IMG/VR virus record: IMGVR_UViG_3300037418_000840 | Strand: one strand, 5' to 3' | DNA length: 64,000 nucleotides | From: a virus | Taxonomy: Duplodnaviria; Caudoviricetes | In this document: in pieces, positions 7,221 to 18,710 of the stretch | Layout: every line of letters starts with the position of its first letter | Numbering within the stretch: position 1 is the stretch's first letter | Position numbers and translations under genes: made by a program | Notes under the pieces: model-generated | What the model saw: only the letters and a program-made list of their open reading frames with translations | The model's database searches: none | Told to the model about the DNA's origin: nothing

Positions 7221-7455
7221 GCTGGAACGCTTCGCCAACGACGGGCGCACCGTCTGTGTCAACTCAGAGATCCTCAAGGGGCTCATCAGTTACGTTCGGC
7301 TCCTGGAGAAAGTCTCCTGGCATGCCGATGAAGCAAGTCCGATCGTGGCGCAGACTTGTCCAGGCAAAAGTCAGTCACTCAACGACAAGATTGCACAAGC
7401 CATTGCAGAAGCCAAGCACGTAAATAACCTGTGTACCACTTTCCTTAAGGATTGA
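7189..7455 (+). CDS. hypothetical protein
   Basis: 88 aa, GGAGG SD at about 7175. Confidence 0.6.
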   Translation: MTTLESKFIDKLERFANDGRTVCVNSEILKGLISYVRLLEKVSWHADEASPIVAQTCPGKSQSLNDKIAQAIAEAKHVNNLCTTFLKD

Positions 7456-7458
7456 ACT

Positions 7459-8178
7459 ATGATCGACCATCCGTGCCCCGAAACACGTTCACGCGTGCTC
7501 CTCATCCAAGGTTTGCCCGGTTCCGGGAAGACGACGTTGGCCCGTCACATCAAAGAGCGCCTCAATGCAGTCCACATCAACGCGGACTGGGCACGCACGA
7601 CCATCACGTCACACTTGGGTTTCAAGTTCGAGGACCGCGTGAAACAGGCAACGGCGCTTGGTCAGATGGCACGATTGATCCAGGACAACGGCCAGTGGGT
7701 GATCGTCGACTTCGTATGCCCATTGCCTCAAACGCGTCACGCCTTCATGTATCACTTCCTCAAGCGCAGTGACGTATTCAGCGTATGGATGGACACCATC
7801 AAAGAGGGTCGCTTCGAAGATACGAACAAGATGTACAAGAAGCCGGCCGAGGATGCATATGACTATCGGGTCTTGAACTATCTCGATGATGACATGTTCA
7901 ACCGCGTGGCTGACGAGATCGTGACCCAAGTGACGGCAGGCCACGCCACGTTCTACATCCGCTACAACACGCTGTCCGACGGCAAGTCCAAGCAGTGGCG
8001 TGTGATCCGGGCCTTGACCGGCGAAGAAACGCTGTGTGATTCATTCGATCTTCGCGGCCATATGGTTCCCGCGATGACCATCGAACACGACGTGCGCAAA
8101 TGGAATGTGGGAGTCACTGGCTTCGGCGCCTTCCTTACCAAAGAAGACGGCACAGTCCAATTCGTTCTCAAGTATTGA
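7459..8178 (+). CDS. adenylyl-sulfate (APS) kinase-like P-loop kinase with C-terminal extra domain
   Basis: LLIQGLPGSGKTTLA Walker A, INADWAR, VIVDFVCP, WMDTIKEGRFEDTNKMY, as in phage CysC-like proteins; AAGGA SD. Confidence 0.72.
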   Translation: MIDHPCPETRSRVLLIQGLPGSGKTTLARHIKERLNAVHINADWARTTITSHLGFKFEDRVKQATALGQMARLIQDNGQWVIVDFVCPLPQTRHAFMYHFLKRSDVFSVWMDTIKEGRFEDTNKMYKKPAEDAYDYRVLNYLDDDMFNRVADEIVTQVTAGHATFYIRYNTLSDGKSKQWRVIRALTGEETLCDSFDLRGHMVPAMTIEHDVRKWNVGVTGFGAFLTKEDGTVQFVLKY

Positions 8179-8185
8179 GGCCCTC

Positions 8186-9310
8186 ATGCTAGGTTATGAT
8201 TTGATCGTTGTCGGCGCTGGTATGACGGGTGCTACCTTCGCGCGTGTAAAGGCCGAGCAGTACCATGCGCGGGTGCTGGTCATCGATCAGCGTCGTCATA
8301 TCGGCGGCAACTGTTACGACCGCTATGAGCGTGGCTTTGGTTTGGTCCACATGTATGGTCCTCATCTATTCCATACGAATAGTGAGAAGATTGTGAACTT
8401 CCTTTCGCGATTCACTGACTGGGTGCCGTACGAGCATCGTGTCCAGGTCGAGGTTCATGGCGAACGCCACCCCATGCCGGTCAACATGGAAACCATTGAG
8501 CGCCTGTTCCCTTCTCACATCGCGGACTCGATGCTCGCCACCTTGACTGAAGTCTGTAACGTGGGTGACACCTTGTCGCTCATGGAGCTTAAACAGATGA
8601 CCGAGCAGTTCAGCAATCTGGTGCCGCTGTACCAGATCGTATTCGAGAAGATCTTCCGACCGTATTCAGAGAAGCAGTGGGGGACGTCGATCGACCGCGT
8701 GGACGAAACGGTTTTGAAGCGAGTGCCTTTACGTCTCAGCTACGACAGCCGCTACTTCACTGATCGGTTCCAAGCTCTTCCTGGGGAAGGTTATACTGAG
8801 ATGTTCAGCAACATGCTGGATCATCCGAATATCCATGTAATGACCGGCACTCCTTGGTCAGCTATCGAGCGCTTCTGGTCACCGCAGGATACACAGGTCT
8901 TCTGGACTGGATCAATCGACCAACTGCTGGACTACAAGTTCGGCCCACTGCCCTACAGATCACTGACTTTCAGTCATGTGTCAGGCCCTGCACTCCCCGT
9001 AGGGACTGTCAACATGCCGATGGACGTACACTATACGCGGGTCACTGACCAGTCGTTCATCAATACGCATCCAGTGCGAGACACGCATCTGCTGACCTAC
9101 GAAACGCCGATGGACTACGATCACACGAATCCTGATCACGTGCCGTACTATCCAGTGGCTGCGGGCAAACACCGATACGAACAGTACGTGGCAGAAGCCG
9201 AGGCTGGCGATCTGCCATATATCTTTGGTGGCCGACTTGGGTCCTTCCAGTATTTGAATATGGACCAAGCGTGTGCTCAGGCCCTCAACCTCGCAGGATA
9301 TAAAGAATGA
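8186..9310 (+). CDS. glf: UDP-galactopyranose mutase
   Basis: FAD motif LIVVGAGMTG; RRHIGGNCYD, HMYGPHLFHT, YSEKQWG, YFTDRFQALP, PYYP, GRLGSFQYLNMDQ. Confidence 0.93.
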   Translation: MLGYDLIVVGAGMTGATFARVKAEQYHARVLVIDQRRHIGGNCYDRYERGFGLVHMYGPHLFHTNSEKIVNFLSRFTDWVPYEHRVQVEVHGERHPMPVNMETIERLFPSHIADSMLATLTEVCNVGDTLSLMELKQMTEQFSNLVPLYQIVFEKIFRPYSEKQWGTSIDRVDETVLKRVPLRLSYDSRYFTDRFQALPGEGYTEMFSNMLDHPNIHVMTGTPWSAIERFWSPQDTQVFWTGSIDQLLDYKFGPLPYRSLTFSHVSGPALPVGTVNMPMDVHYTRVTDQSFINTHPVRDTHLLTYETPMDYDHTNPDHVPYYPVAAGKHRYEQYVAEAEAGDLPYIFGGRLGSFQYLNMDQACAQALNLAGYKE

Positions 9311-10086
9311 TCATCAGTCAGCGTTCCAAGTTCGTCTTCATTCATAATCCCAAGGTGGCAGGCACGTCGATCCGCACGGCCATCGGAGACCGTCACGACT
9401 GGTCAACTCATTTCTGGCATCAGGGCTGGTCCGAAGAGGCGCAGCGAGTTGTCGACTTGGCGCACATACCCTATCGTGATCTGCCCGACGATGTTAAGAG
9501 CATTATCAGTCAGTCGTTTACCTTCGGCTTCGTCCGCGATCCGATGTCTCGCTTCTGGGCGTCGCTTGCTGAATTCCGTCGTCAGCATGCAGATTGGGAA
9601 GAACTGGCCAGAATGCCGGCCGAAGGCTTACTGAATCACGTGTTGACCCCGGCTGCCATTCGTCACGACTGGCGATTCACCCACTTCTGTCCACAACACG
9701 CGTTCTTCTACGATGGGCGAAAGTGCGTGGCCGACTTCGTGGGACACCACGAAACATTTGCTCGTGATTGGGCACGCATCCAAGTGATGATCGGCACTGA
9801 TTTCAAACCGTTGGACAATGCCCGCCATCGTGGGACCACTGATGATGAGCCGTTGACCAAGCAGGGGTTCGCTAAGTTCCTCAATCTATACGCGATGGAC
9901 TACGCGCTGTTTGGCTACGATATCCCGGCAGAGCCCAACTTGGATGACGGATATCCTGAGTCAACGCATTGGTCCCGTGTCGAATCCATCCATACGCCAT
10001 ACTTACAGGTCAATGCGGAGCTTGAAGCGCTGATGACCGAAGGGGAGCGTGCGGCCTATAAACAGAAGCTCAAATCCACGCTATGA
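9307..10086 (+). CDS. PAPS-dependent sulfotransferase (Sulfotransfer_2 / CHST-like)
   Basis: 5'-PSB motif FIHNPKVAGTSI, 3'-PB motif FGFVRDPMSRFWAS, HFCPQ; ATGA overlap with glf. Confidence 0.85.
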   Translation: MIISQRSKFVFIHNPKVAGTSIRTAIGDRHDWSTHFWHQGWSEEAQRVVDLAHIPYRDLPDDVKSIISQSFTFGFVRDPMSRFWASLAEFRRQHADWEELARMPAEGLLNHVLTPAAIRHDWRFTHFCPQHAFFYDGRKCVADFVGHHETFARDWARIQVMIGTDFKPLDNARHRGTTDDEPLTKQGFAKFLNLYAMDYALFGYDIPAEPNLDDGYPESTHWSRVESIHTPYLQVNAELEALMTEGERAAYKQKLKSTL

Positions 10087-11399
10087 AGATCCTGTTCACA
10101 CTGTTCGAAATCCAAGACTTCGGTGGCATAGCCGCCGATCTTGTATTCAAGAAGAAAGGTCTCGAGGAAGCAGGGCACGAAGTGGACATCGTGTATCTCC
10201 GCCATTCGGACAAGCCCAACTACGTGCGACGCGTGGTCGGTGCCGGTCGTCAGGGTAATTACGACATCGGCGGCGGGATCACGGTCAATACCCTGTCCGG
10301 CTTCTACGGGGTTCCTGTCATGTCCTATGCGTCCAAGCGACTGATGCGCAAATGGTGGGCCTTCGCCGATCGCTATGACATGGTGATCCACGAAATCCCG
10401 GGACCAAATCCTGCGAAGACTGGGGCTATCGATGTTAAGGGCTACTGGCGACAGGTGTACGATGTCGAGACACCGCAGATTATCTCAGCCCATGACGCGC
10501 ATTTCCGTGACATGTATCCACACCTGATCGAAGTAGCTGACAAGGTACGTGGTATCTCATGCACGAATCCGGCCGGCTATGTGGCCCTCGAATGGTTCCC
10601 GGGTCCACGCGCGTTTATCGGTGCGCCGCATCCAGTCCTCAACTGGAAGAAGCTCCCCGCATGGGAGGACCGTGACCCGAATGCCGTATGTGCCCACGTA
10701 TGGAAAGCGTGGAAGCACATGGATCAGGCAGTACGCAGTGCCCGTTATCTTGAAGACGCGAACCTGATCATGGCCGGTGATGGGATCGAACGTCGCTACA
10801 TGACTTCGGTCGATAAGTGCAAGCCCAAGTACAAGGGTGTATGGGCACGAGCCGAGCGGGCAGGCATGGACTACAAGGGGATGTTGACCCCGAGTCAGCT
10901 GTCGAAGGTGTATCGCAACGCCAGAGTCATGGTCGATTGCAGTTGGAGCGCCAAGTTCGCGAAGCTGAACAATCACTTCAACCGGTCTATCATCGAGGGG
11001 TACAACCATGGATGCGTCCCAATATGTGTCGACATCAACATGGCTGAACCCGGTATGCAGGTCCAGATGTTCCAGAAGGGGAAGACTCACTTCGAGATAG
11101 CGCACGATGCGACACCGCGTCAACTCGCTGAACTGATTGATCATGTGGTGAACCTGCCACCAGAGAAGGCTGCGGCGATGGTCAAGCGTGGCCGTCGCAT
11201 CCTCCTCGACTACTTCGACTATCGCAAGACCAGTCTCGAGTATATCAAGCTTGCGAAGGGAAAGGCAGCCGGCGTCTATCCGAAGCTCGAAGTAGGGAAG
11301 ACCAACAAGACGATCAAGCGTAATGTCGAGCGCTTCATGACCAAGGTCGATCGTCAGATTGCCAAGCGTGATCGCAAAGCCGCTGAGCAGGAGGAATGA
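10083..11399 (+). CDS. GT-B fold glycosyltransferase (GT4-like)
   Basis: MKILF...DFGG...GLEEAGHEVDIV N-terminus; YRNARVMVDCS...IIEGYNHGCVPI C-terminal donor-binding region; ATGA overlap. Confidence 0.8.
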   Translation: MKILFTLFEIQDFGGIAADLVFKKKGLEEAGHEVDIVYLRHSDKPNYVRRVVGAGRQGNYDIGGGITVNTLSGFYGVPVMSYASKRLMRKWWAFADRYDMVIHEIPGPNPAKTGAIDVKGYWRQVYDVETPQIISAHDAHFRDMYPHLIEVADKVRGISCTNPAGYVALEWFPGPRAFIGAPHPVLNWKKLPAWEDRDPNAVCAHVWKAWKHMDQAVRSARYLEDANLIMAGDGIERRYMTSVDKCKPKYKGVWARAERAGMDYKGMLTPSQLSKVYRNARVMVDCSWSAKFAKLNNHFNRSIIEGYNHGCVPICVDINMAEPGMQVQMFQKGKTHFEIAHDATPRQLAELIDHVVNLPPEKAAAMVKRGRRILLDYFDYRKTSLEYIKLAKGKAAGVYPKLEVGKTNKTIKRNVERFMTKVDRQIAKRDRKAAEQEE

Positions 11400-11743
11400 T
11401 GAAGGACTATTTCAGTCCCCTTGGTGTTAAATACGAGGCGTCCAATCATCAAGTGTGGCCCTCGCTTCCTATCTGTCAGTATCTCGTTGGCACTCCCTGG
11501 AATGATACGGCACTGGCTGCCGTTTCATCAACACGCCCGTCGTCGATCCGTGTTGTGCGTCACGACGGGGAGATCAAGGACAATGGCAGCATGTGGCGAG
11601 TTACGGTTTTTCTCGACCACCTAGGCTTAATCTCCAACGTTGAACAGGAAGTAGTGGTCGATGCGCCTGAAGGTGTAGTAAACGGCCATGAGTTCTGTCG
11701 CCGTCTCGAAAAATATCCACACTGGCCCGCTGATTCGTTCTAG
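11396..11743 (+). CDS. peptidase-inhibitor I78/potato-I-like small protein
   Basis: QYLVG...IRVV...RVTVFLDHLGLISNV pattern; family call tentative. Confidence 0.5.
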   Translation: MMKDYFSPLGVKYEASNHQVWPSLPICQYLVGTPWNDTALAAVSSTRPSSIRVVRHDGEIKDNGSMWRVTVFLDHLGLISNVEQEVVVDAPEGVVNGHEFCRRLEKYPHWPADSF

Positions 11744-11752
11744 GAGTTGATC

Positions 11753-12196
11753 ATGGGATTCGAAGTCGTTCATCATGGAAAAGATTCACCAGAAGAAGTG
11801 CGACGCAAGCGTATCGCCAATCACATGTCGTATTGCACGCACTATCGACCGAAGGGGCTGAGCATCGCCACCGCTTGTCAAGTCGGATGCAATGCGCTGA
11901 AGGGTCCCTGTATCGACGGTCATACGCTACCAGACGTGCTGGACCGGTGCCCCAAGTGGGAACGCCGTTCACTGGCCGAAGCCGAAGCACGGGCAGACGA
12001 GCTCGAACGTGCGTTCGATCGCATGGAGAAGGTGGCACCTGTCATCAATGAATGGCGGTCCAAGCCCCCGATCGGAAAGGACGGAACTGTCGATTGCCCG
12101 ATATGTGGTGGCCAACTGTTCCTCAGCCAATCGGCGCGCAACGGTCACGTGAGTGCCAAGTGTACGACCGCAGGCTGTGTGTCGTTCATCGAGTAA
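11753..12196 (+). CDS. Cys-rich hypothetical protein
   Basis: AGGAG SD; multiple Cys/His including CPICG...HVSAKC. Confidence 0.65.
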   Translation: MGFEVVHHGKDSPEEVRRKRIANHMSYCTHYRPKGLSIATACQVGCNALKGPCIDGHTLPDVLDRCPKWERRSLAEAEARADELERAFDRMEKVAPVINEWRSKPPIGKDGTVDCPICGGQLFLSQSARNGHVSAKCTTAGCVSFIE

Positions 12197-12227
12197 CGGC
12201 CGTTACGATTAACATCGGAGACTCTAT

Positions 12228-12530
12228 ATGCTACCCGCATTCTTTACTCGCATCCAGACGCTGTTGACTACGGGCCAACCCAAAAACTATGCTGGCAGCG
12301 ACATGGCGAAAGCTGATTGGGCTGCGCTTGGACGTACGATTGAAATCCTCGACAACGCAAACAGGTTGCCGACAGGTTGGAAACCTGCGCCTCCCCTCAT
12401 GACGCATCAAATGCATCAGGCCATGCAAAATGCGATAGACAGTGGACAACCAGTCTGGCCAGCCATCCTGAACGTGATGCCGAACCCGCCGGCCGATGGA
12501 CGTACGCTGACCGTCAACGACACAGTCTAA
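12228..12530 (+). CDS. hypothetical protein
   Basis: 100 aa, GGAG SD. Confidence 0.6.
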   Translation: MLPAFFTRIQTLLTTGQPKNYAGSDMAKADWAALGRTIEILDNANRLPTGWKPAPPLMTHQMHQAMQNAIDSGQPVWPAILNVMPNPPADGRTLTVNDTV

Positions 12531-12534
12531 CCAA

Positions 12535-12852
12535 GTGTGTGACGGATATCACCCGCTCGTAGTCAACTGCCGGACCGATGATTACGATGAGTACATCGGA
12601 CGTCCTGGTCCGTGGGGCAATCCTTTCATAGTGGGTACGCACGGGACACGCAAGCAAGTGTGCGCCTTCCACCGTAAATGGATTGATGGATTAATACGCG
12701 GTCCTAACGGGGAACGACCTCCATCCAAGAAAGAGATCAGGCGCAAACTCAAAGGCAAGCGTCTAGGATGTTGGTGTAAGCCAAAGGAATGCCACGGTCT
12801 TTACTTGGCTCATATCGCCAATCGAAAGCAAACGAAGGGGCTTTTCAGATGA
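12535..12852 (+). CDS. DUF4326 domain protein
   Basis: YIGRPGPWGNPF ... LKGKRLGCWCKPKECHG signature. Confidence 0.85.
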   Translation: MCDGYHPLVVNCRTDDYDEYIGRPGPWGNPFIVGTHGTRKQVCAFHRKWIDGLIRGPNGERPPSKKEIRRKLKGKRLGCWCKPKECHGLYLAHIANRKQTKGLFR

Positions 12853-13793
12853 GGTACTTCGTCCTCTCATACAATCGGCCCGACCTGCAGATTACTCTGC
12901 AGTCAATGCCACCCGACCTCCTCAGCCAGATCGAGTTGATGGTGGTCCCAAAAGAATACAAGCAGTACAAACGTGGATGGTATGCGTCGAAGGTCAAGGC
13001 CATCCACACGTGGCCTGACTACGTGGACTGTGTACCGAAGAAACGCCACTGGATCGCCCAGAATGCGAAGGACGACTACATCTTGATCGATGACGACGTG
13101 AATCTCTACGTCTGGTCGCGTAAGCGCGACAAGTTCGTTCGTGCACTGGATTTGCCTAAGCGCTTTGCCTACGAATTCATGGAGGGGCTACCTTCACAAT
13201 TCGAGACCTACGCGTCAGTTGCTGCGGCCAACAAGTTCATGGCTGACCCGTTCGTTCGTCAACACGGTCTAGTCAAGGACGACAGTGTGGGCTTCGTCAT
13301 GTCTGGATTCGCGAAGGGCACGACTAAGAAGGTGCAGATGGGTTGTACCTTTGTCTACACAGACATAGACCTGCCTCTCCAAGTGTTCCAGGAACACAAG
13401 ACCTCGTGTATCTACTATGGTCTGTGCTACAACCATTCGGGAGTCAAGGCTCTTCAGAATACGGGAACCTCGACCTACAGATCAGACTTCCTCAAGCTGG
13501 ATTCAGCGATCCGTATGGCTGTCCTCTATCAAGGGATCATCACCGGAGCCAAATGGAATAACAACAAGGGCGGTGGGGTTACGCTCCAGAAGTGGTTCAA
13601 TCGAGTAAAGACCGGGGTCACTGCCGCCCATGTAAATAAGACACAGGAATGGTTACGTACCATCTGTGCTGAGCACGGCCTCCGTTCGTGTCCGGACTTC
13701 TATCGCTACGATATGGAGACACCGAAAGACTACATCTTTCAGAAGTACGAAGAGCTCTGGGAAGAGAAGCTAATCAAAAGGAAACGTCGATGA
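12849..13793 (+). CDS. GT-A fold glycosyltransferase, TAGT / base-J glucosyltransferase-like
   Basis: FVLSYNRP N-terminus, VVPKEYKQY, KKRHWI, YILIDDDV (DxD); ATGA overlap. Confidence 0.7.
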   Translation: MRYFVLSYNRPDLQITLQSMPPDLLSQIELMVVPKEYKQYKRGWYASKVKAIHTWPDYVDCVPKKRHWIAQNAKDDYILIDDDVNLYVWSRKRDKFVRALDLPKRFAYEFMEGLPSQFETYASVAAANKFMADPFVRQHGLVKDDSVGFVMSGFAKGTTKKVQMGCTFVYTDIDLPLQVFQEHKTSCIYYGLCYNHSGVKALQNTGTSTYRSDFLKLDSAIRMAVLYQGIITGAKWNNNKGGGVTLQKWFNRVKTGVTAAHVNKTQEWLRTICAEHGLRSCPDFYRYDMETPKDYIFQKYEELWEEKLIKRKRR

Positions 13794-14278
13794 ATATTCG
13801 ATTGACCACCATGTGTCCCGACCCGTTCAACCGGTATCCACAGTTGTTCGACATCTGGCCGGAACCTTACCTTACGTCAGCGGTCGAGGCTACGAATGAG
13901 GACTGGGGTGATGGCAGCGTCTTCTTCATAGAAGCCGATCATCAAGTGGTCGGCATCACCGGCTTGTTCTTCGAAGAGGAAGACAAGGAGAACGCGTTCC
14001 TTCGTTGGACGGGTGTCATTCCGTGCATGCGTCGTCGTGGGATTACTAGTTACATAGTCGATCTCATGGCGCTGATGGCTGTCAACCTGTGCAAGCGCAC
14101 CGGTTACCTAATCGAACTCGTTCCCTACAACGATTACGGTCACTTCGAGAGCGGTGCCTACCCGTTCTTCACGGACCTTGGATTCAAACAACTATCTGGC
14201 ATCAAGCACGAACAGACCGATTGGCAGGTTCGTGTTATGGGCCTTGCTCTCGAGAAATACAGGACAAAGAATGCCTAA
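13790..14278 (+). CDS. GNAT family acetyltransferase
   Basis: VVGITGL...AFLRWTGVIPCMRRRGITS (motif A R/QxxGxx), FFTDLGF. Confidence 0.75.
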   Translation: MNIRLTTMCPDPFNRYPQLFDIWPEPYLTSAVEATNEDWGDGSVFFIEADHQVVGITGLFFEEEDKENAFLRWTGVIPCMRRRGITSYIVDLMALMAVNLCKRTGYLIELVPYNDYGHFESGAYPFFTDLGFKQLSGIKHEQTDWQVRVMGLALEKYRTKNA

Positions 14279-15260
14279 GCTAAAATCTCAAAAGGGACAG
14301 CAGTCCCTATTCGATGGCGAAGCGCCGTATCTGTTTGCGCCCAACGAACAGAACAGTCCGGAATCGATGGCCAAGTTCTGGATCGAGCGCCACAAGATCT
14401 ATTTGAAGCGCTTTCACCTGAAGGCCAAGGCTCCGTGGACTACCGATCCCGTGCTTTCCAACTACCGATTCTGCAACATCTATCGTGAGCTCGATACGGT
14501 CAGCAAGTGGATCATCGAGAAAGTGATCGAGCCCTATGCCAAGAACGACAATCTGTGGTTCATGCTCGCCATGTCGCGGATCATCAACTGGCCGGACACT
14601 TTGCAGGCTATCATGGACGCTGGCGCATGGCCCGAGCGTCGTTGGGACCCTGATGCGGTCTACGCAGTGATGAACGACATAAGGGCACAGAAACGCAAGG
14701 TCATCACTGGAGCCTACATCATCAACTCGGTGTTCCCCAAGGGGGTGAATCCGCCGGATCGCAGCAAGAATTACTACATCCCGTTCTACGGACTTGACCC
14801 TCTGTGGAAAGACCGCCAGTCCCTTCGCGATGCTTTCCGTGATAATCAAGCCGAGGCTGTCGACACACTGCGCCAGTATCAAGGATGGGGTGCCTTCATG
14901 GCCTATCAAGTGATCGTCGATTTGACCTACAGCAGACGATGGCTTGGCCGGGCATCGGACATCGAGACGTTCACCAGTCCAGGACCGGGGACCACGCGCG
15001 GTATGAACCGCCTTTTGTTCGGTGGCCGTAAGCCCCAACTCAGGGCTGACCAGTTGAATGAGCCGATGATCAAGGCACGAGCCGAGGTCAATGCGGCAGC
15101 GCGCGCCGTTGTGCCCGCTAAGTGGTGGACTGACGATTTCAAGACTGGGTTCACAAATCTGTCGGCAGCCAATTTCAGTAACCTGTGCTGCGAGTACGAC
15201 AAATATTGTCGTGTGATCAGCGGTGAAGGAGAGCCCCGTGCCGGATACAAAGCCCGATGA
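14271..15260 (+). CDS. 5-hydroxymethyl-dU DNA kinase-like (aGPT-Pplase1 family)
   Basis: FWIERHKIY...PWTTDPVLSNYRFCNIYRELD, RIINWPDTL, GWGAFMAYQVIVDL, GPGTTRG helical DNA-glycosylase-like signature. Confidence 0.82.
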   Translation: MPKLKSQKGQQSLFDGEAPYLFAPNEQNSPESMAKFWIERHKIYLKRFHLKAKAPWTTDPVLSNYRFCNIYRELDTVSKWIIEKVIEPYAKNDNLWFMLAMSRIINWPDTLQAIMDAGAWPERRWDPDAVYAVMNDIRAQKRKVITGAYIINSVFPKGVNPPDRSKNYYIPFYGLDPLWKDRQSLRDAFRDNQAEAVDTLRQYQGWGAFMAYQVIVDLTYSRRWLGRASDIETFTSPGPGTTRGMNRLLFGGRKPQLRADQLNEPMIKARAEVNAAARAVVPAKWWTDDFKTGFTNLSAANFSNLCCEYDKYCRVISGEGEPRAGYKAR

Positions 15261-15627
15261 TGGACGACGCAAGTCCAAGATCGGTATCGAGATGAGCCCC
15301 GAACTACGCGACGTAGCCAACCGGTTGATGGTCCGTCTCGATACCGATTCAATCCATGAAGTAGTGCGCCGTGCTCTGTATTACTACGAACGCGCTCTCA
15401 ACAAGAACGCGCCGCCTCCGGTTAAGACAAAGCTCCATGACTTCGTTGTCCACTTGTATGAGAAGGAAGACGGTAGCTATGACATCGTAGGTCACCGCCA
15501 CTGCGGTAATGGCGGCGATGCCCTGTACGGGAACAAGCCCAACGAAGAAGATGCACGGGCTGAGGTTAAGAGTCGTTTCCCTTTTGAACATGAGGTAGTA
15601 GTTCACCCACTAAAGCCTCGTGCGTAA
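15238..15627 (+). CDS. ribbon-helix-helix DNA-binding protein with C-terminal domain
   Basis: GTG 15238 after AAGGAG; KIGIEMSPELRDVANRLMVRLDTDSIHEVVRRAL fits the RHH/CopG pattern. Confidence 0.65.
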   Translation: MPDTKPDDGRRKSKIGIEMSPELRDVANRLMVRLDTDSIHEVVRRALYYYERALNKNAPPPVKTKLHDFVVHLYEKEDGSYDIVGHRHCGNGGDALYGNKPNEEDARAEVKSRFPFEHEVVVHPLKPRA

Positions 15628-15661
15628 ATAGAGGCCGTTGTCAACCATCACGTACCTTACC

Positions 15662-16813
15662 ATGAAAGTCATCTACGCAAACAATCCTGATCACGGACTG
15701 GAGACGGCCCTACGGTCCATCATCCACGAGGGTGCCACGTGCGATAGTCGCAATGGGCCGGTCCTTCGTTTCCGCACGCCAGTCACTTCGGTGTATAACA
15801 CGCCGCGCCATCGTGTGTCGTTCAACAAGGTGCGTGATGCCAATCCGTTCCTTCACTTGATGGAAAGCTTGTGGATGCTAGCCGGTCGCAACGACGTTGA
15901 GTTCGCGGCCTACTATGCCAAGCAGATGCTCCAGTACACCGACGACGGAAAGACCCTCAACGGTGCCTATGGCTATCGCTGGCGCAAGCACTTCGGCTAC
16001 GATCAGCTGGAAGCAGTGATCGAAGAACTCAAGAAGACCAAGGGCAACAGCCGGCGTTGCGTGATCCAAATGTGGGACGCCAGCCGCGATTTCTATCCAG
16101 GCGAAGATTCCTGGGCAGTCAAGCGAGAGTCCGATCTTCTGAACCAAACGTCGAAGGACCTGCCGTGCAACACGGCCCTCATGTTCGATGCCCAACTCGG
16201 CCATCTCGACATGACGGTCGTCAACCGCAGTAACGACACGATCTGGGGCTGCTACGGGGCGAACGCTGTGCACTTCTCGTTCCTCCTGGAATACATGGCG
16301 GATCGGATCGGCATCCCGGTCGGAACCTACTACCAAGTGTCGAACAATCTTCACGCGTATCTGGAGTTCGATATCACGAAGCGGTTCATCGCGTGGGATC
16401 AACAGACGCAGCACGCAACCATCGACGACGATGCGTTTCAGCCGGAGCCGGATTTTGGTATCGCGACTCCCTACACTGCGCATCTGATTCATTCCATGGC
16501 CTTGAACGCCGGGATCACCGGGTGGGACGACGAGCTCCATCATCTGGTCGACAACTACAGGACCACCGAGTATTCACGGTACTCCATTGCCTTCTTCGAT
16601 CTGGTCGCGGCCCCCATGTGTGCGGCCTACAACTGCTACAAGAGCAACGGCCCGGAGGCCGGTCTCGCCGTACTCAGTACGGCAAACGAGAAGTACAAAC
16701 GCACGCTGTCCATCGACGTGGCAAACGATTGGATCCTAGCCGGTGCTCGTTGGCTCCGTCGTCGGCCGTCCATCAATCGCGGCCTGAGCCAGCCCACCGA
16801 CTTTGGTCTGTAA
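15662..16813 (+). CDS. thymidylate synthase-family protein, probable dUMP hydroxymethylase
   Basis: ANPF...ESLWMLAGRND, GAYGYRWR, SRRCVIQMWD, DLPCN (catalytic Cys), RSNDTIWGCYGAN, NNLHAY; Asn at the uracil-specifying site; TTG 15638 is an alternative start. Confidence 0.85.
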   Translation: MKVIYANNPDHGLETALRSIIHEGATCDSRNGPVLRFRTPVTSVYNTPRHRVSFNKVRDANPFLHLMESLWMLAGRNDVEFAAYYAKQMLQYTDDGKTLNGAYGYRWRKHFGYDQLEAVIEELKKTKGNSRRCVIQMWDASRDFYPGEDSWAVKRESDLLNQTSKDLPCNTALMFDAQLGHLDMTVVNRSNDTIWGCYGANAVHFSFLLEYMADRIGIPVGTYYQVSNNLHAYLEFDITKRFIAWDQQTQHATIDDDAFQPEPDFGIATPYTAHLIHSMALNAGITGWDDELHHLVDNYRTTEYSRYSIAFFDLVAAPMCAAYNCYKSNGPEAGLAVLSTANEKYKRTLSIDVANDWILAGARWLRRRPSINRGLSQPTDFGL

Positions 16814-16841
16814 GTCAATCCATCTACAAGCGAGGACCCTC

Positions 16842-17303
16842 ATGAGCAATCCGAATGACCGTCAGGTAGGCGGCACCTACTATCGATCGAAGTACCAACA
16901 CTGGGATATGGCGACCGACACGCTGATGCGCCATCTGGAAGGCGCGGCCTCGAAATACCTGTCGCGCTTCGGCAATAAACCCGGTGAACCGGCATCCAAA
17001 GACCTGGAGAAAGCCGGCCACTACATCGAAAAGCTGATCGATCAGGCGCGACACAACGTCAACTTCGAACCCCTGGCCGTGATCCAGAATCGTATGGGCG
17101 TCGTGCCCGATACCTACGTCAATTGGTTTGTCGAGGGTCTGTCGGGACCTCCGGCTGGTGAAGAGAACGTGTCGGTCTTGCGCATTCTTGCCAGCTGGAA
17201 TTCGTTCAGCGAGCTCGAAGACGCACTGGCCGTAGTCAACAAGCTGAAATCGCACCACGTTGCTATCGAACAAGAGCACGCGGCGTCCAAAGGGATGGAC
17301 TAA
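16842..17303 (+). CDS. DUF3310 (T7 gp1.7-like nucleotide kinase family) protein
   Basis: NDRQVGGTYY...QHWD...KYLSRFGNK...DLEKAGHYIEKL. Confidence 0.8.
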   Translation: MSNPNDRQVGGTYYRSKYQHWDMATDTLMRHLEGAASKYLSRFGNKPGEPASKDLEKAGHYIEKLIDQARHNVNFEPLAVIQNRMGVVPDTYVNWFVEGLSGPPAGEENVSVLRILASWNSFSELEDALAVVNKLKSHHVAIEQEHAASKGMD

Positions 17304-17304
17304 C

Positions 17305-17790
17305 ATGGATTTGGGACCGACTCCTAACCAGAAGATCGTGGTCTGTGACATCGACGGATGCCTCATCGATTCGAGTCATCGCACTGGCCTCTATTTCTCT
17401 GGTGATCATGCAGGTTACTTTGCAGCATCGAAAGACGATAAGGTGATCCCTCAGGGTCAGCACGTGTACCGTGCGTTCTACGACGTGCCGGGTGTACTTC
17501 AACTGTTCGTCACAAGCCGTGGCGACTGGGGAACCTATCGAGAAGTGACCCTTGGTCAACTGCGGGACTTCGTCGGTCCCAAGATCGCTGATCATCAGCT
17601 GTTGATGCGGCCCAAGGGTGTTCAGGGCCTGGACGTGATGTCGGACGAAGTGTACAAGGCGTGGGCTGTGGAGAACGCAGGCTATTCTCTGGCAGATGTC
17701 TGGATGGCTTTCGATGATCGCGAATGCGTTGTCGAAATGTGGCGACGTAGGGGTGTCGTCTGCTACCATACGCAGCCCGGCTTGTACTGA
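17305..17790 (+). CDS. HAD-family phosphatase (PNKP 3'-phosphatase-like)
   Basis: VCDIDGCL (motif I), VTSR (II), LLMRP...K (III), AFDDR...VVEMWRR (IV). Confidence 0.85.
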   Translation: MDLGPTPNQKIVVCDIDGCLIDSSHRTGLYFSGDHAGYFAASKDDKVIPQGQHVYRAFYDVPGVLQLFVTSRGDWGTYREVTLGQLRDFVGPKIADHQLLMRPKGVQGLDVMSDEVYKAWAVENAGYSLADVWMAFDDRECVVEMWRRRGVVCYHTQPGLY

Positions 17791-17800
17791 GGTTACGCTT

Positions 17801-18331
17801 ATGGATAGCAAGCAATTAGTCAAGGACCGTGTGGATCAGGTGATGGCCGCAACGGCTCCGCTCTTCAAGGTGCCCCGTAGTCGCTTACTTGAGTCAGTCG
17901 CTCGTGGATACGGGTTCAACACATTCGCCGCCGCATGTGCAATGACTAGCGGCAATCAGTTTGATACTGACGCGTTCCATCGTCGGTACTCGGAACTCGA
18001 GAACCAGCGTCAAGCGTGCGCCGTTGCTGCCGTTGTTATGGGTTATACGTTGGACCTTCAGTTCACCCCACTGGGACCTGACACTGGAGCGACGGTCATC
18101 TATCAAGTGGAGGCCACTGCCAAGGGTCCTCGTCAGTTGCCTGCTGTCCTTGAATTCTATCTGCCGAAGAAGATACCATCGCGGTTCGTCAGCGATATGG
18201 GCTTCGGTGAAGAGGGTTCCGAGTTCGGGTTCTTACGCCGTGGCTCCTGGCAGGGTCAGTACTACGCGGTCAACAATCTGAAATGGGGTCGTGCTAGTTT
18301 AGCGCGGGCCATTTTCTCAGCACTGTATTGA
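17801..18331 (+). CDS. hypothetical protein
   Basis: 176 aa, GAGG SD. Confidence 0.65.
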   Translation: MDSKQLVKDRVDQVMAATAPLFKVPRSRLLESVARGYGFNTFAAACAMTSGNQFDTDAFHRRYSELENQRQACAVAAVVMGYTLDLQFTPLGPDTGATVIYQVEATAKGPRQLPAVLEFYLPKKIPSRFVSDMGFGEEGSEFGFLRRGSWQGQYYAVNNLKWGRASLARAIFSALY

Positions 18332-18341
18332 GGAGCATCAA

Positions 18342-18710
18342 ATGAATGAAGATCAAGACAAGAGTTTGGGTGCCCGTGTCCAACGCGCTCTGAACCGTGT
18401 CGCCAAATGGCGTACTGTCTATGTATCCTGGCAGTTGGGGACCAGAATCAAGGGCGATCCTGAAGCCGCCGCAGTGCGTGATGCGGCAGAACAACGCATT
18501 ATGCAACGTGTCGAACTATCGGCACTCGCGTCGCTTCTCATTAAGAAGGGCGTGTTCACTATCGACGAGTTCAACGAAGAACTGATTATCGAAGCGGCGG
18601 CTCTTGAGAAGGCGTTGGAGCGCCGGTTCCCCGGCTTTAAAGCCCAGGACAACGGCATGGACGTCAACTTGGCGCTCGCTCGCGATACGATGCATGGATG
18701 GCTGCCCTGA
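18342..18710 (+). CDS. hypothetical protein
   Basis: 122 aa, GAGGAG SD. Confidence 0.7.
   Translation: MNEDQDKSLGARVQRALNRVAKWRTVYVSWQLGTRIKGDPEAAAVRDAAEQRIMQRVELSALASLLIKKGVFTIDEFNEELIIEAAALEKALERRFPGFKAQDNGMDVNLALARDTMHGWLP

Follow-up and report, generated by a model that had tools for sequence, protein, structure and literature searches.

Sugar-modified thymine is known from base J of the kinetoplastids, and in phage SP-15 a base that stands in for thymine occurs as a glucosylated derivative. Recent work on DNA glycosylation in phages has dealt with 5-hydroxymethylcytosine (hmC) and with TET-like oxygenases. Here we analyse a glycosyltransferase gene, located at positions 12849 to 13793 on the plus strand of a 64,000-nucleotide stretch of phage DNA (hereafter the window), together with the gene module that surrounds it. 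The window is part of the 171,762-bp IMG/VR record IMGVR_UViG_3300037418_000840, which is about 72% complete and whose source is a jumbo phage from soil, a relative of Ralstonia phage phiRSL1. The gene product, P0002, belongs to the TAGT family, and we conclude that it very likely works in a pathway that glycosylates 5-hydroxymethyluracil (hmU) in DNA.

The beta-glucosyl-HMC-alpha-glucosyltransferase of phages T2 and T6 is, like P0002, a member of the Pfam TAGT family with a type A glycosyltransferase (GT-A) fold. It acts, in a phage, on DNA whose hydroxymethyl-pyrimidines already carry sugar, and is partnered by a transferase of the type B fold (GT-B), the T-even alpha-glucosyltransferase (AGT); the module of P0002 also encodes a GT-B enzyme, whose top structural match, in a tie, is AGT. 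In T2 and T6, the GT-B enzyme adds the first glucose and the TAGT enzyme the second (PMC13216743). The T2/T6 enzyme differs in that it is only about 15% identical to P0002, which carries some 60 extra residues at its C terminus, and in that it sits on a long separate branch in our tree. Further, the T-even base is hmC, whereas that of the window phage is predicted to be hmU. The phage has a thymidylate synthase (TS) homologue of the type that acts on deoxyuridine monophosphate (dUMP), along with HMUDK_hel, a marker of hmU pathways, so the glucosyl-hmC acceptor of the T2/T6 enzyme is not expected here. Finally, T-even phages are without Glf, sulfotransferase and HMUDK_hel genes, and P0002 is linked to all three.

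The glucosyltransferase that makes base J (JGT) is another GT-A enzyme, with hmU in DNA as its acceptor, and the window phage is predicted to make hmU. Phage GT-A DNA glycosyltransferases and JGT have in common an R...DDD...EDY/F motif (Pyle et al., bioRxiv 10.1101/2023.12.21.572611), and R10, D81-83 and D172 of P0002 occupy the positions of this motif. The two systems diverge in the origin of the base, since in kinetoplastids JBP dioxygenases generate hmU on the DNA itself whereas the window phage has a predicted nucleotide-level hydroxymethylase and no detected Tet_JBP gene (scans below). They may also diverge in the acceptor, as P0002 may act on a sugar rather than on hmU itself.

A syntenic module lies behind the primase gene in phiRSL1 (ORF230-238), which is a cultured phage. 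Amino acid identities between the two phages are 59% for a protein resembling adenosine phosphosulfate (APS) kinase (ORF238), 36% for the sulfotransferase (ORF232), 49% for HMUDK_hel, 61% for the TS homologue (ORF230) and 51% for a HAD phosphatase (ORF228). Of all fold matches to P0002, ORF233 ranks best, with a template modelling (TM) score of 0.77, and it has the same position upstream of HMUDK_hel. The phiRSL1 module differs in having three TAGT genes (ORF237, ORF234 and ORF233), whose products are 23-29% identical to P0002, and in having a sugar-kinase-like protein and a nucleotidyltransferase instead of Glf and GT-B.

HMUDK_hel, TAGT and TS genes are likewise linked in PhiJL001 and in HTVC023P-type pelagiphages, with a 5'-deoxynucleotidase gene nearby. 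These cassettes differ in carrying a single short TAGT (257-272 residues) that falls outside the P0002 clade, and in being without Glf, GT-B and sulfotransferase. Hypermodification in phages M6, ViI and PaMx11 has in common with the window a dUMP hydroxymethylase and an HMUDK_hel protein of the M6 gp55 type, and their modification is made on hmU after replication, as we propose for the window phage. Unlike those phages, the window has glycosyltransferases rather than the P-loop HMUD1 kinase, ADDT, pyridoxal phosphate (PLP) or radical S-adenosylmethionine (radical-SAM) enzymes, with the kinase and ADDT scans being soft negatives. The TAGT and aGPT-Pplase families were reportedly defined by Iyer et al. 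in 2013. The co-location of HMUDK_hel, TAGT and TS in PhiJL001/HTVC023P-type phages has been pointed out previously (PMC9599517).

Results

P0002 is a TAGT-family GT-A glycosyltransferase

The assignment of P0002 to the TAGT family follows from a Pfam cut-off, from its fold and from its catalytic motifs. The 314-residue protein scores 31.9 bits against Pfam TAGT (PF20691), above the gathering score of 27.5, with residues 4-194 aligned to profile positions 4-195 (192 of 205 covered), and 40 of 44 diverse relatives match the family as well. Among 44 TAGT-like sequences, R10 of the S7-Y8-N9-R10 motif (codon 12876-12878) is conserved in at least 90%. The D81-D82-D83 motif (codons 13089-13097), which is of the DXD type that binds metal and nucleotide sugar, has an invariant D82 flanked by aspartates that are each at least 90% conserved in the same set. 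D172 (codon 13362-13364), the candidate catalytic base, is conserved in at least 90% of the 44 and is invariant in 18 close relatives; its context reads TDI where the family has EDY/F, so that the Asp is retained and the Glu is not. By these motifs, the enzyme looks catalytically intact. The protein is basic, with an isoelectric point (pI) of 9.29, a net charge of +8 over residues 201-314 and +5 over residues 1-200, and a C-terminal tail reading KLIKRKRR.

An AlphaFold2 model, with 18 relatives in the alignment, has GT-A topology and a mean predicted local distance difference test (pLDDT) value of 91. Among predicted viral structures, its best matches are two phiRSL1 TAGT proteins (TM 0.77 and 0.70), followed by proteins annotated as "TET-associated glycosyltransferase domain" and a T6-type beta-glucosyl-HMC-alpha-glucosyltransferase. 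TAGT clusters of the ESM atlas match P0002 too, including TAGT-Tet_JBP fusions, and one cluster that is 78% TAGT matches at TM 0.73. A fold search of the PDB returned generic GT-A enzymes only, at TM of about 0.4, the top one being the nucleoside glycosyltransferase AvpGT (TM 0.40). Because no TAGT or JGT structure is among those PDB matches, the comparison is uninformative on whether P0002 most resembles a protein or lipopolysaccharide transferase, an outcome that an earlier note on this DNA, written from the sequence, had put forward as evidence against a base-J-like role. That note had also described a GT-A protein with SYNR and DDD motifs and a basic C-terminal half, and this description is borne out by the reading frame, motifs, charge and model fold.

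Neither a megablast search with positions 10000-18000 nor a tblastn search with P0002 against 50,697 phage records (E 1e-3) gave any match; the phiRSL1 relatives were missed by tblastn because they are too divergent, and surfaced through fold and neighbouring genes. An NCBIfam scan of P0002 gave L31e as its sole match, which we attribute to chance.

The same 314-residue frame is present in public gene calls on independent contigs, and an identical protein is encoded on a second contig, of 231.6 kb. The ATG of the gene overlaps the stop codon of an upstream DUF4326 gene (ATGA, 12849-12852), at its 3' end the stop codon shares ATGA (13790-13793) with the start codon of a GNAT gene, and the GNAT and HMUDK_hel genes overlap by 8 nt. 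These stop/start overlaps make DUF4326, TAGT, GNAT and HMUDK_hel four translationally coupled genes. The block sits within a long run of genes on the same strand, where promoter and terminator scans gave signals at or below chance.

The probable source of hydroxymethyluracil

The hmU is probably made by the dUMP-specific TS homologue at 15662-16813 (plus strand; Pfam PF00303), judging from its active-site residues. The protein has the catalytic Cys and carries Asn at the pyrimidine-discriminating position, as thymidylate synthases do to read uracil, whereas its best solved match, the CMP hydroxymethylase MilA, has Asp there; the solved structures closest to it are hydroxymethylases. The presence of Asn rather than Asp marks the homologue as dUMP-type, and the phiRSL1 counterpart is annotated "deoxyuridylate hydroxymethyltransferase". 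The TAGT gene lies 1.9 kb away. In the relative L004, the TS homologue matches the window protein in two pieces (12727-13185 and 14158-14778) about 970 nt apart, resembling an intron, intein or homing-endonuclease insertion.

A Tet_JBP domain was not detected among the Pfam-scanned neighbours, nor in profile scans of the phage record, the complete phiRSL1 genome and a 99%-complete relative. The genome scan is insensitive, since PF20691 missed P0002 in its own record, and its failure on a weak TAGT match leads us to regard its failure to find Tet_JBP, ADDT or HMUD1 as a set of soft negatives. HMUDK_hel, which the same scan picked up, served as a positive control. The earlier proposal that hmU comes from a nucleotide-level hydroxymethylase instead of a TET/JBP enzyme is thus supported by the dUMP-type TS homologue, with TET/JBP enzymes undetected within these soft limits.

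The gene two downstream of TAGT had been called hmdU-kinase-like. Its position was correctly given; its identity as a kinase was not. The product of 14271-15260 (plus strand) is an HMUDK_hel protein (PF18723, 158.7 bits), a homologue of M6 gp55 formerly called aGPT-Pplase1. It has no Walker A motif and no P-loop, and its family stands apart from the P-loop 5-hydroxymethyldeoxyuridine (5-hmdU) DNA kinases of PF18748. We therefore rejected HMUDK_hel as the hmdU kinase. The genuine kinase family, PF18748, and ADDT, PF18724, were both missing from the phage record, phiRSL1 and the 99%-complete relative, again as soft negatives.

Across 81 loci (L014 and L017-L096), ten HMUDK_hel residues are invariant (R40, R72, D75, N106, Y149, D217, G240, C307, E308 and K311), and they are kept in TAGT-type and kinase-type contexts alike. 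In ADDT, a sister family, a conserved Cys and a neighbouring Glu are essential (PMC8989533). Ten invariant residues, among them a Cys-Glu pair as in ADDT, give HMUDK_hel the look of an enzyme rather than a passive "helical domain", with a role common to both kinds of pathway. A predicted complex of TAGT and HMUDK_hel scored 0.00, which is no evidence either way. A GIY-YIG gene adjoins HMUDK_hel in the locus L011.

TAGT genes alternate with kinase/ADDT genes in HMUDK_hel loci

In a library of 1.84 billion protein representatives, the 51 sequences nearest to P0002 all have kin inside HMUDK_hel loci. Relatives of 32-51% identity retain the TS homologue, HMUDK_hel, Glf, sulfotransferase and GT-B with a shuffled gene order. 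The APS-kinase-like gene is usually retained as well; GNAT and DUF4326 are not.

We surveyed 80 viral IMG/VR contigs (L017-L096) that were fetched by HMUDK_hel and typed by profiles. A TS homologue lies within 10 kb in 74 of the 80. TAGT is present in 48 loci and a P-loop kinase and/or ADDT in 21, and the two never occur together (0/80), an exclusion with a Fisher p of 1e-11 on loci. When HMUDK_hel proteins are clustered at 70% identity, 14 clusters are of the TAGT type, 16 of the kinase/ADDT type and none of both (p = 3e-5). About 35 contigs share a compact HMUDK_hel-TAGT-TS cassette whose genes meet at junctions of -3 to +10 nt. The cultured phage PhiJL001 (13637-14455) has HMUDK_hel as gp19, TAGT as gp22, Nmad5 as gp23, TS as gp24 and a deoxynucleotidase as gp25. 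Its cluster is syntenic with those of the M6 type, with TAGT in place of the kinase, ADDT, PLP and radical-SAM genes. From this alternation, TAGT enzymes emerge as a recurrent alternative arm of hmU pathways.

A proposed pathway and its alternatives

We propose a model where the TS homologue would produce 5-hydroxymethyldeoxyuridine monophosphate (hmdUMP), the phosphatase would help to exclude deoxythymidine monophosphate (dTMP), and hmU would be incorporated into DNA at replication. After replication, two basic transferases would assemble a glycan on the 5-CH2OH group. The T4-AGT-like GT-B enzyme (10083-11399) would place the first sugar on hmU, and the TAGT enzyme would add the next, plausibly galactofuranose from UDP-galactofuranose (UDP-Galf) made by the phage Glf. 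The resulting glycan could then serve as acceptor for the co-inherited sulfotransferase and would probably be sulfated. Known galactofuranosyltransferases are GT-A enzymes and the P0002 clade strictly co-occurs with Glf, which together make UDP-Galf a reasonable guess for the donor.

Placing P0002 in an hmU-DNA glycan pathway, at a second-sugar step like that in T2 and T6, is our best overall explanation, and we hold it tentatively. Supposing that such a pathway exists, the addition of a second or more distal sugar seems to us an evenly balanced prospect, and JGT-like addition of the first sugar directly on hmU a distinctly weaker one. A later step is suggested by the company that P0002 keeps. 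Its clade is always accompanied by Glf, sulfotransferase and GT-B; the GT-B gene lies directly upstream of TAGT in L004-L006, and the TAGT start codon overlaps the stop of the sulfotransferase gene in L010 and L016 and that of the Glf gene in L011 and L012. The phylogeny points the same way, in that the P0002 clade (98 in the Shimodaira-Hasegawa-like approximate likelihood ratio test, SH-aLRT) joins the phiRSL1 ORF233- and ORF234-type TAGTs at 99, and every member of this group comes from a module with several transferases, with the enzymes of single-TAGT cassettes falling outside. The ORF237 type of phiRSL1 clusters with L025 and L033, two loci whose sole recognised transferase is of this type and lies beside a nucleotidyltransferase. 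The top VIA match of the GT-B model (pLDDT 77) is T4 alpha-glucosyltransferase on HMU-containing DNA (1y8z_B; Z 24.5, root-mean-square deviation 3.7, 335 residues aligned), tied with the ordinary GT4 enzymes HepE (Z 24.0) and PimA (Z 23.9), so that DNA activity of the GT-B enzyme does not follow from it.

Several points, that tie among them, weigh against our best explanation. The tree came from a quick maximum-likelihood search rooted on the long T2 branch, and it leaves the three-way split of P0002, ORF233 and ORF234 types unresolved. PhiJL001, the cultured phage with a minimal cassette, is said at second hand to have normally digestible DNA (PMC4276943). GREB1, a TAGT-family enzyme, can act on protein (PMC7968844). 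We found no nucleoside analysis of phiRSL1 DNA in the literature searched.

Other such points favour a different order of steps, in which P0002 itself attaches the first sugar to the 5-hydroxymethyl of hmU within duplex DNA, making a phage analogue of base J, and the GT-B enzyme extends the glycan. This we consider possible and somewhat unlikely. TAGT is the sole recognised transferase in the compact cassettes of about 35 contigs and in PhiJL001, so the family presumably acts first there, and the mutual exclusion of TAGT and the kinase/ADDT arm is what would be expected if both use the hmU hydroxyl. Modules of the phiRSL1 type hold TAGT-family transferases alone. P0002 shares with phiRSL1 ORF233 both its position beside HMUDK_hel and its C-terminal extension, and a transferase that is conserved across module types would be expected to perform the conserved first step. 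Moreover, TAGT is in the coupled DUF4326-TAGT-GNAT-HMUDK_hel block and GT-B is in a block with the APS-kinase-like, Glf and sulfotransferase genes. JGT, too, is presumably placed formally in Pfam TAGT. JGT is structurally homologous to phage GT-A DNA glycosyltransferases (bioRxiv 10.1101/2023.12.21.572611). Against direct transfer to hmU, the P0002 clade groups with enzymes of multi-transferase modules and is not nested among the single-cassette TAGTs, a T4-AGT-like GT-B is always present beside it, and in relatives the TAGT gene is coupled to sulfotransferase and Glf.

A target other than DNA is unlikely. In such a scheme the transferases, Glf, sulfotransferase and kinase-like protein would build or modify a sulfated glycan attached to a virion protein or to a host envelope polymer, and their proximity to hmU genes would reflect the clustering of early and middle genes. 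Sulfotransfer_2, Glf and GT4 proteins are indeed common in the synthesis of polysaccharides and glycoconjugates, both Glf and the sulfotransferase are acidic, GREB1 is a TAGT relative that glycosylates protein (PMC7968844), and no report of a sulfated nucleic-acid base was found in the literature searched. Yet these genes have remained together with TS and HMUDK_hel despite several independent rearrangements and at 30-50% identity, and TAGT abuts HMUDK_hel (-3 to +10 nt) in many unrelated contigs. In addition, no membrane-anchor or export genes were seen among the profile-scanned genes of the module, which is set among primase, RecA-like, ligase and topoisomerase genes.

A route in which a kinase (possibly the APS-kinase-like protein with HMUDK_hel) first activates hmU, a hydroxyl- or amine-bearing group then replaces it, and the transferases glycosylate this group rather than hmU is very improbable. 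It could draw on the invariant Cys-Glu pair of HMUDK_hel, whose equivalent is essential in ADDT (PMC8989533), on the P-loop gene, which in L004 and L005 adjoins HMUDK_hel as the kinase does in M6-type phages, and on a GNAT as in PaMx11. But ADDT and the HMUD1 kinase were not found in the three genomes scanned, TAGT-type loci carry kinase/ADDT in 0 of 48, the P-loop protein matches APS kinases and not 5-HMUDK, and cassettes of HMUDK_hel, TAGT and TS alone keep the Cys-Glu pair just as invariably.

Neighbouring genes of the module

The module genes described here are all on the plus strand. Four of them follow one another upstream of TAGT, the first encoding the APS-kinase-like P-loop kinase (7459-8178; Pfam APS_kinase, 58 bits). 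This protein scores 52 bits against TIGR00455, well under the cut-off of 138.7 bits. It aligns to solved APS kinases, keeping LGF..DR and F-x-x-P and having NAD in place of DGD, and has an extra tail of about 100 residues. Its substrate may be APS or another compound. In L004 and L005 the APS-kinase-like gene adjoins HMUDK_hel. Next is the UDP-galactopyranose mutase gene, Glf (8186-9310), which matches the TIGR00031 equivalog at 312.2 bits (cut-off 303.75) and Pfam GLF at 164 bits. The Glf-like mutase of the earlier note is hence a bona fide Glf.

The sulfotransferase (9307-10086) is of the carbohydrate-type Sulfotransfer_2 family (Pfam PF03567, 34.6 bits), and the GT4-like GT-B enzyme (10083-11399), the second transferase of the module, has weak matches to Pfam GT4 and Glyco_trans_1_2. 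The DUF4326 gene coupled upstream of TAGT (12535-12852; Pfam PF14216, 77.8 bits) encodes a protein with a pI of 9.9 and is present in just 2 of 81 typed HMUDK_hel loci. The GNAT acetyltransferase coupled downstream (13790-14278; Pfam Acetyltransf_1, 24.8 bits) is absent from L004-L006 and phiRSL1 and is therefore accessory. A DUF3310 gene lies between the TS homologue and a HAD_PNKP-type phosphatase (17260-17790; Pfam PF25109), a candidate nucleotidase for dTMP or other deoxynucleoside monophosphates (dNMP), whose position is occupied in relatives by NT5C or YfbR-like nucleotidases. TAGT, GT-B and HMUDK_hel are basic (pI 9.3-9.5), and Glf, the sulfotransferase, GNAT and TS are acidic.

Sequencing data and sequence variants

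Phage DNA is at least partly present in 20 of 24 listed soil and rhizosphere metagenome runs, from 13 studies, all of these runs being stored as contigs. Parts of 7351-18500 (for example 10284-10541, 12306-12572 and 16191-17224) are also covered by short contigs of two metatranscriptome libraries from roots. These contigs hint at expression of the module in roots, with the body of TAGT uncovered and DNA carry-over possible. Two DNA runs have a 10-nt insertion, TCTGTAAGTT, at window position 16806, where the TS homologue and DUF3310 meet, and one contig of an RNA library has a 9-nt insertion behind 15396. In a reverse-complement comparison, the window and the genome record (68584-132583) differ at 2 of 64,000 positions (zero-based offsets 22095 and 46793).

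Discussion

P0002 is part of a sizeable group of phage cassettes, for the most part unstudied, where a TAGT gene takes the place of the kinase/ADDT arm. What is new here is the alternation of TAGT with kinase/ADDT on a core of TS and HMUDK_hel, and in the simplest reading sugar transfer and phosphorylation are two fates of one hmU hydroxyl. Carried to its full extent, our model would have soil jumbo phages like phiRSL1 replace thymine with hmU bearing a sulfated glycan that contains galactofuranose, one of whose sugars is added by P0002; we regard this picture as doubtful. Nothing was found in the literature searched that links phiRSL1 to hmU glycosylation or sulfation.

Should the products of these cassettes be glycosyl-hmU, they would represent a second, pre-replicative phage route to base-J-like DNA, and their enzymes could be used for labelling hmU. 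The variety of transferase and donor genes in the phiRSL1 group would then bear the marks of an arms race against nucleases and glycosylases of the host that recognise sugars on DNA. If hmU with a sulfated galactofuranose glycan exists, it would rank as the first nucleic-acid base known to be sulfated. Its existence would further mean that O-glycosyl-hmU of the base-J type can arise without a TET/JBP oxygenase, and that TAGT and kinase/ADDT are interchangeable chemistries on a common core of TS and HMUDK_hel.

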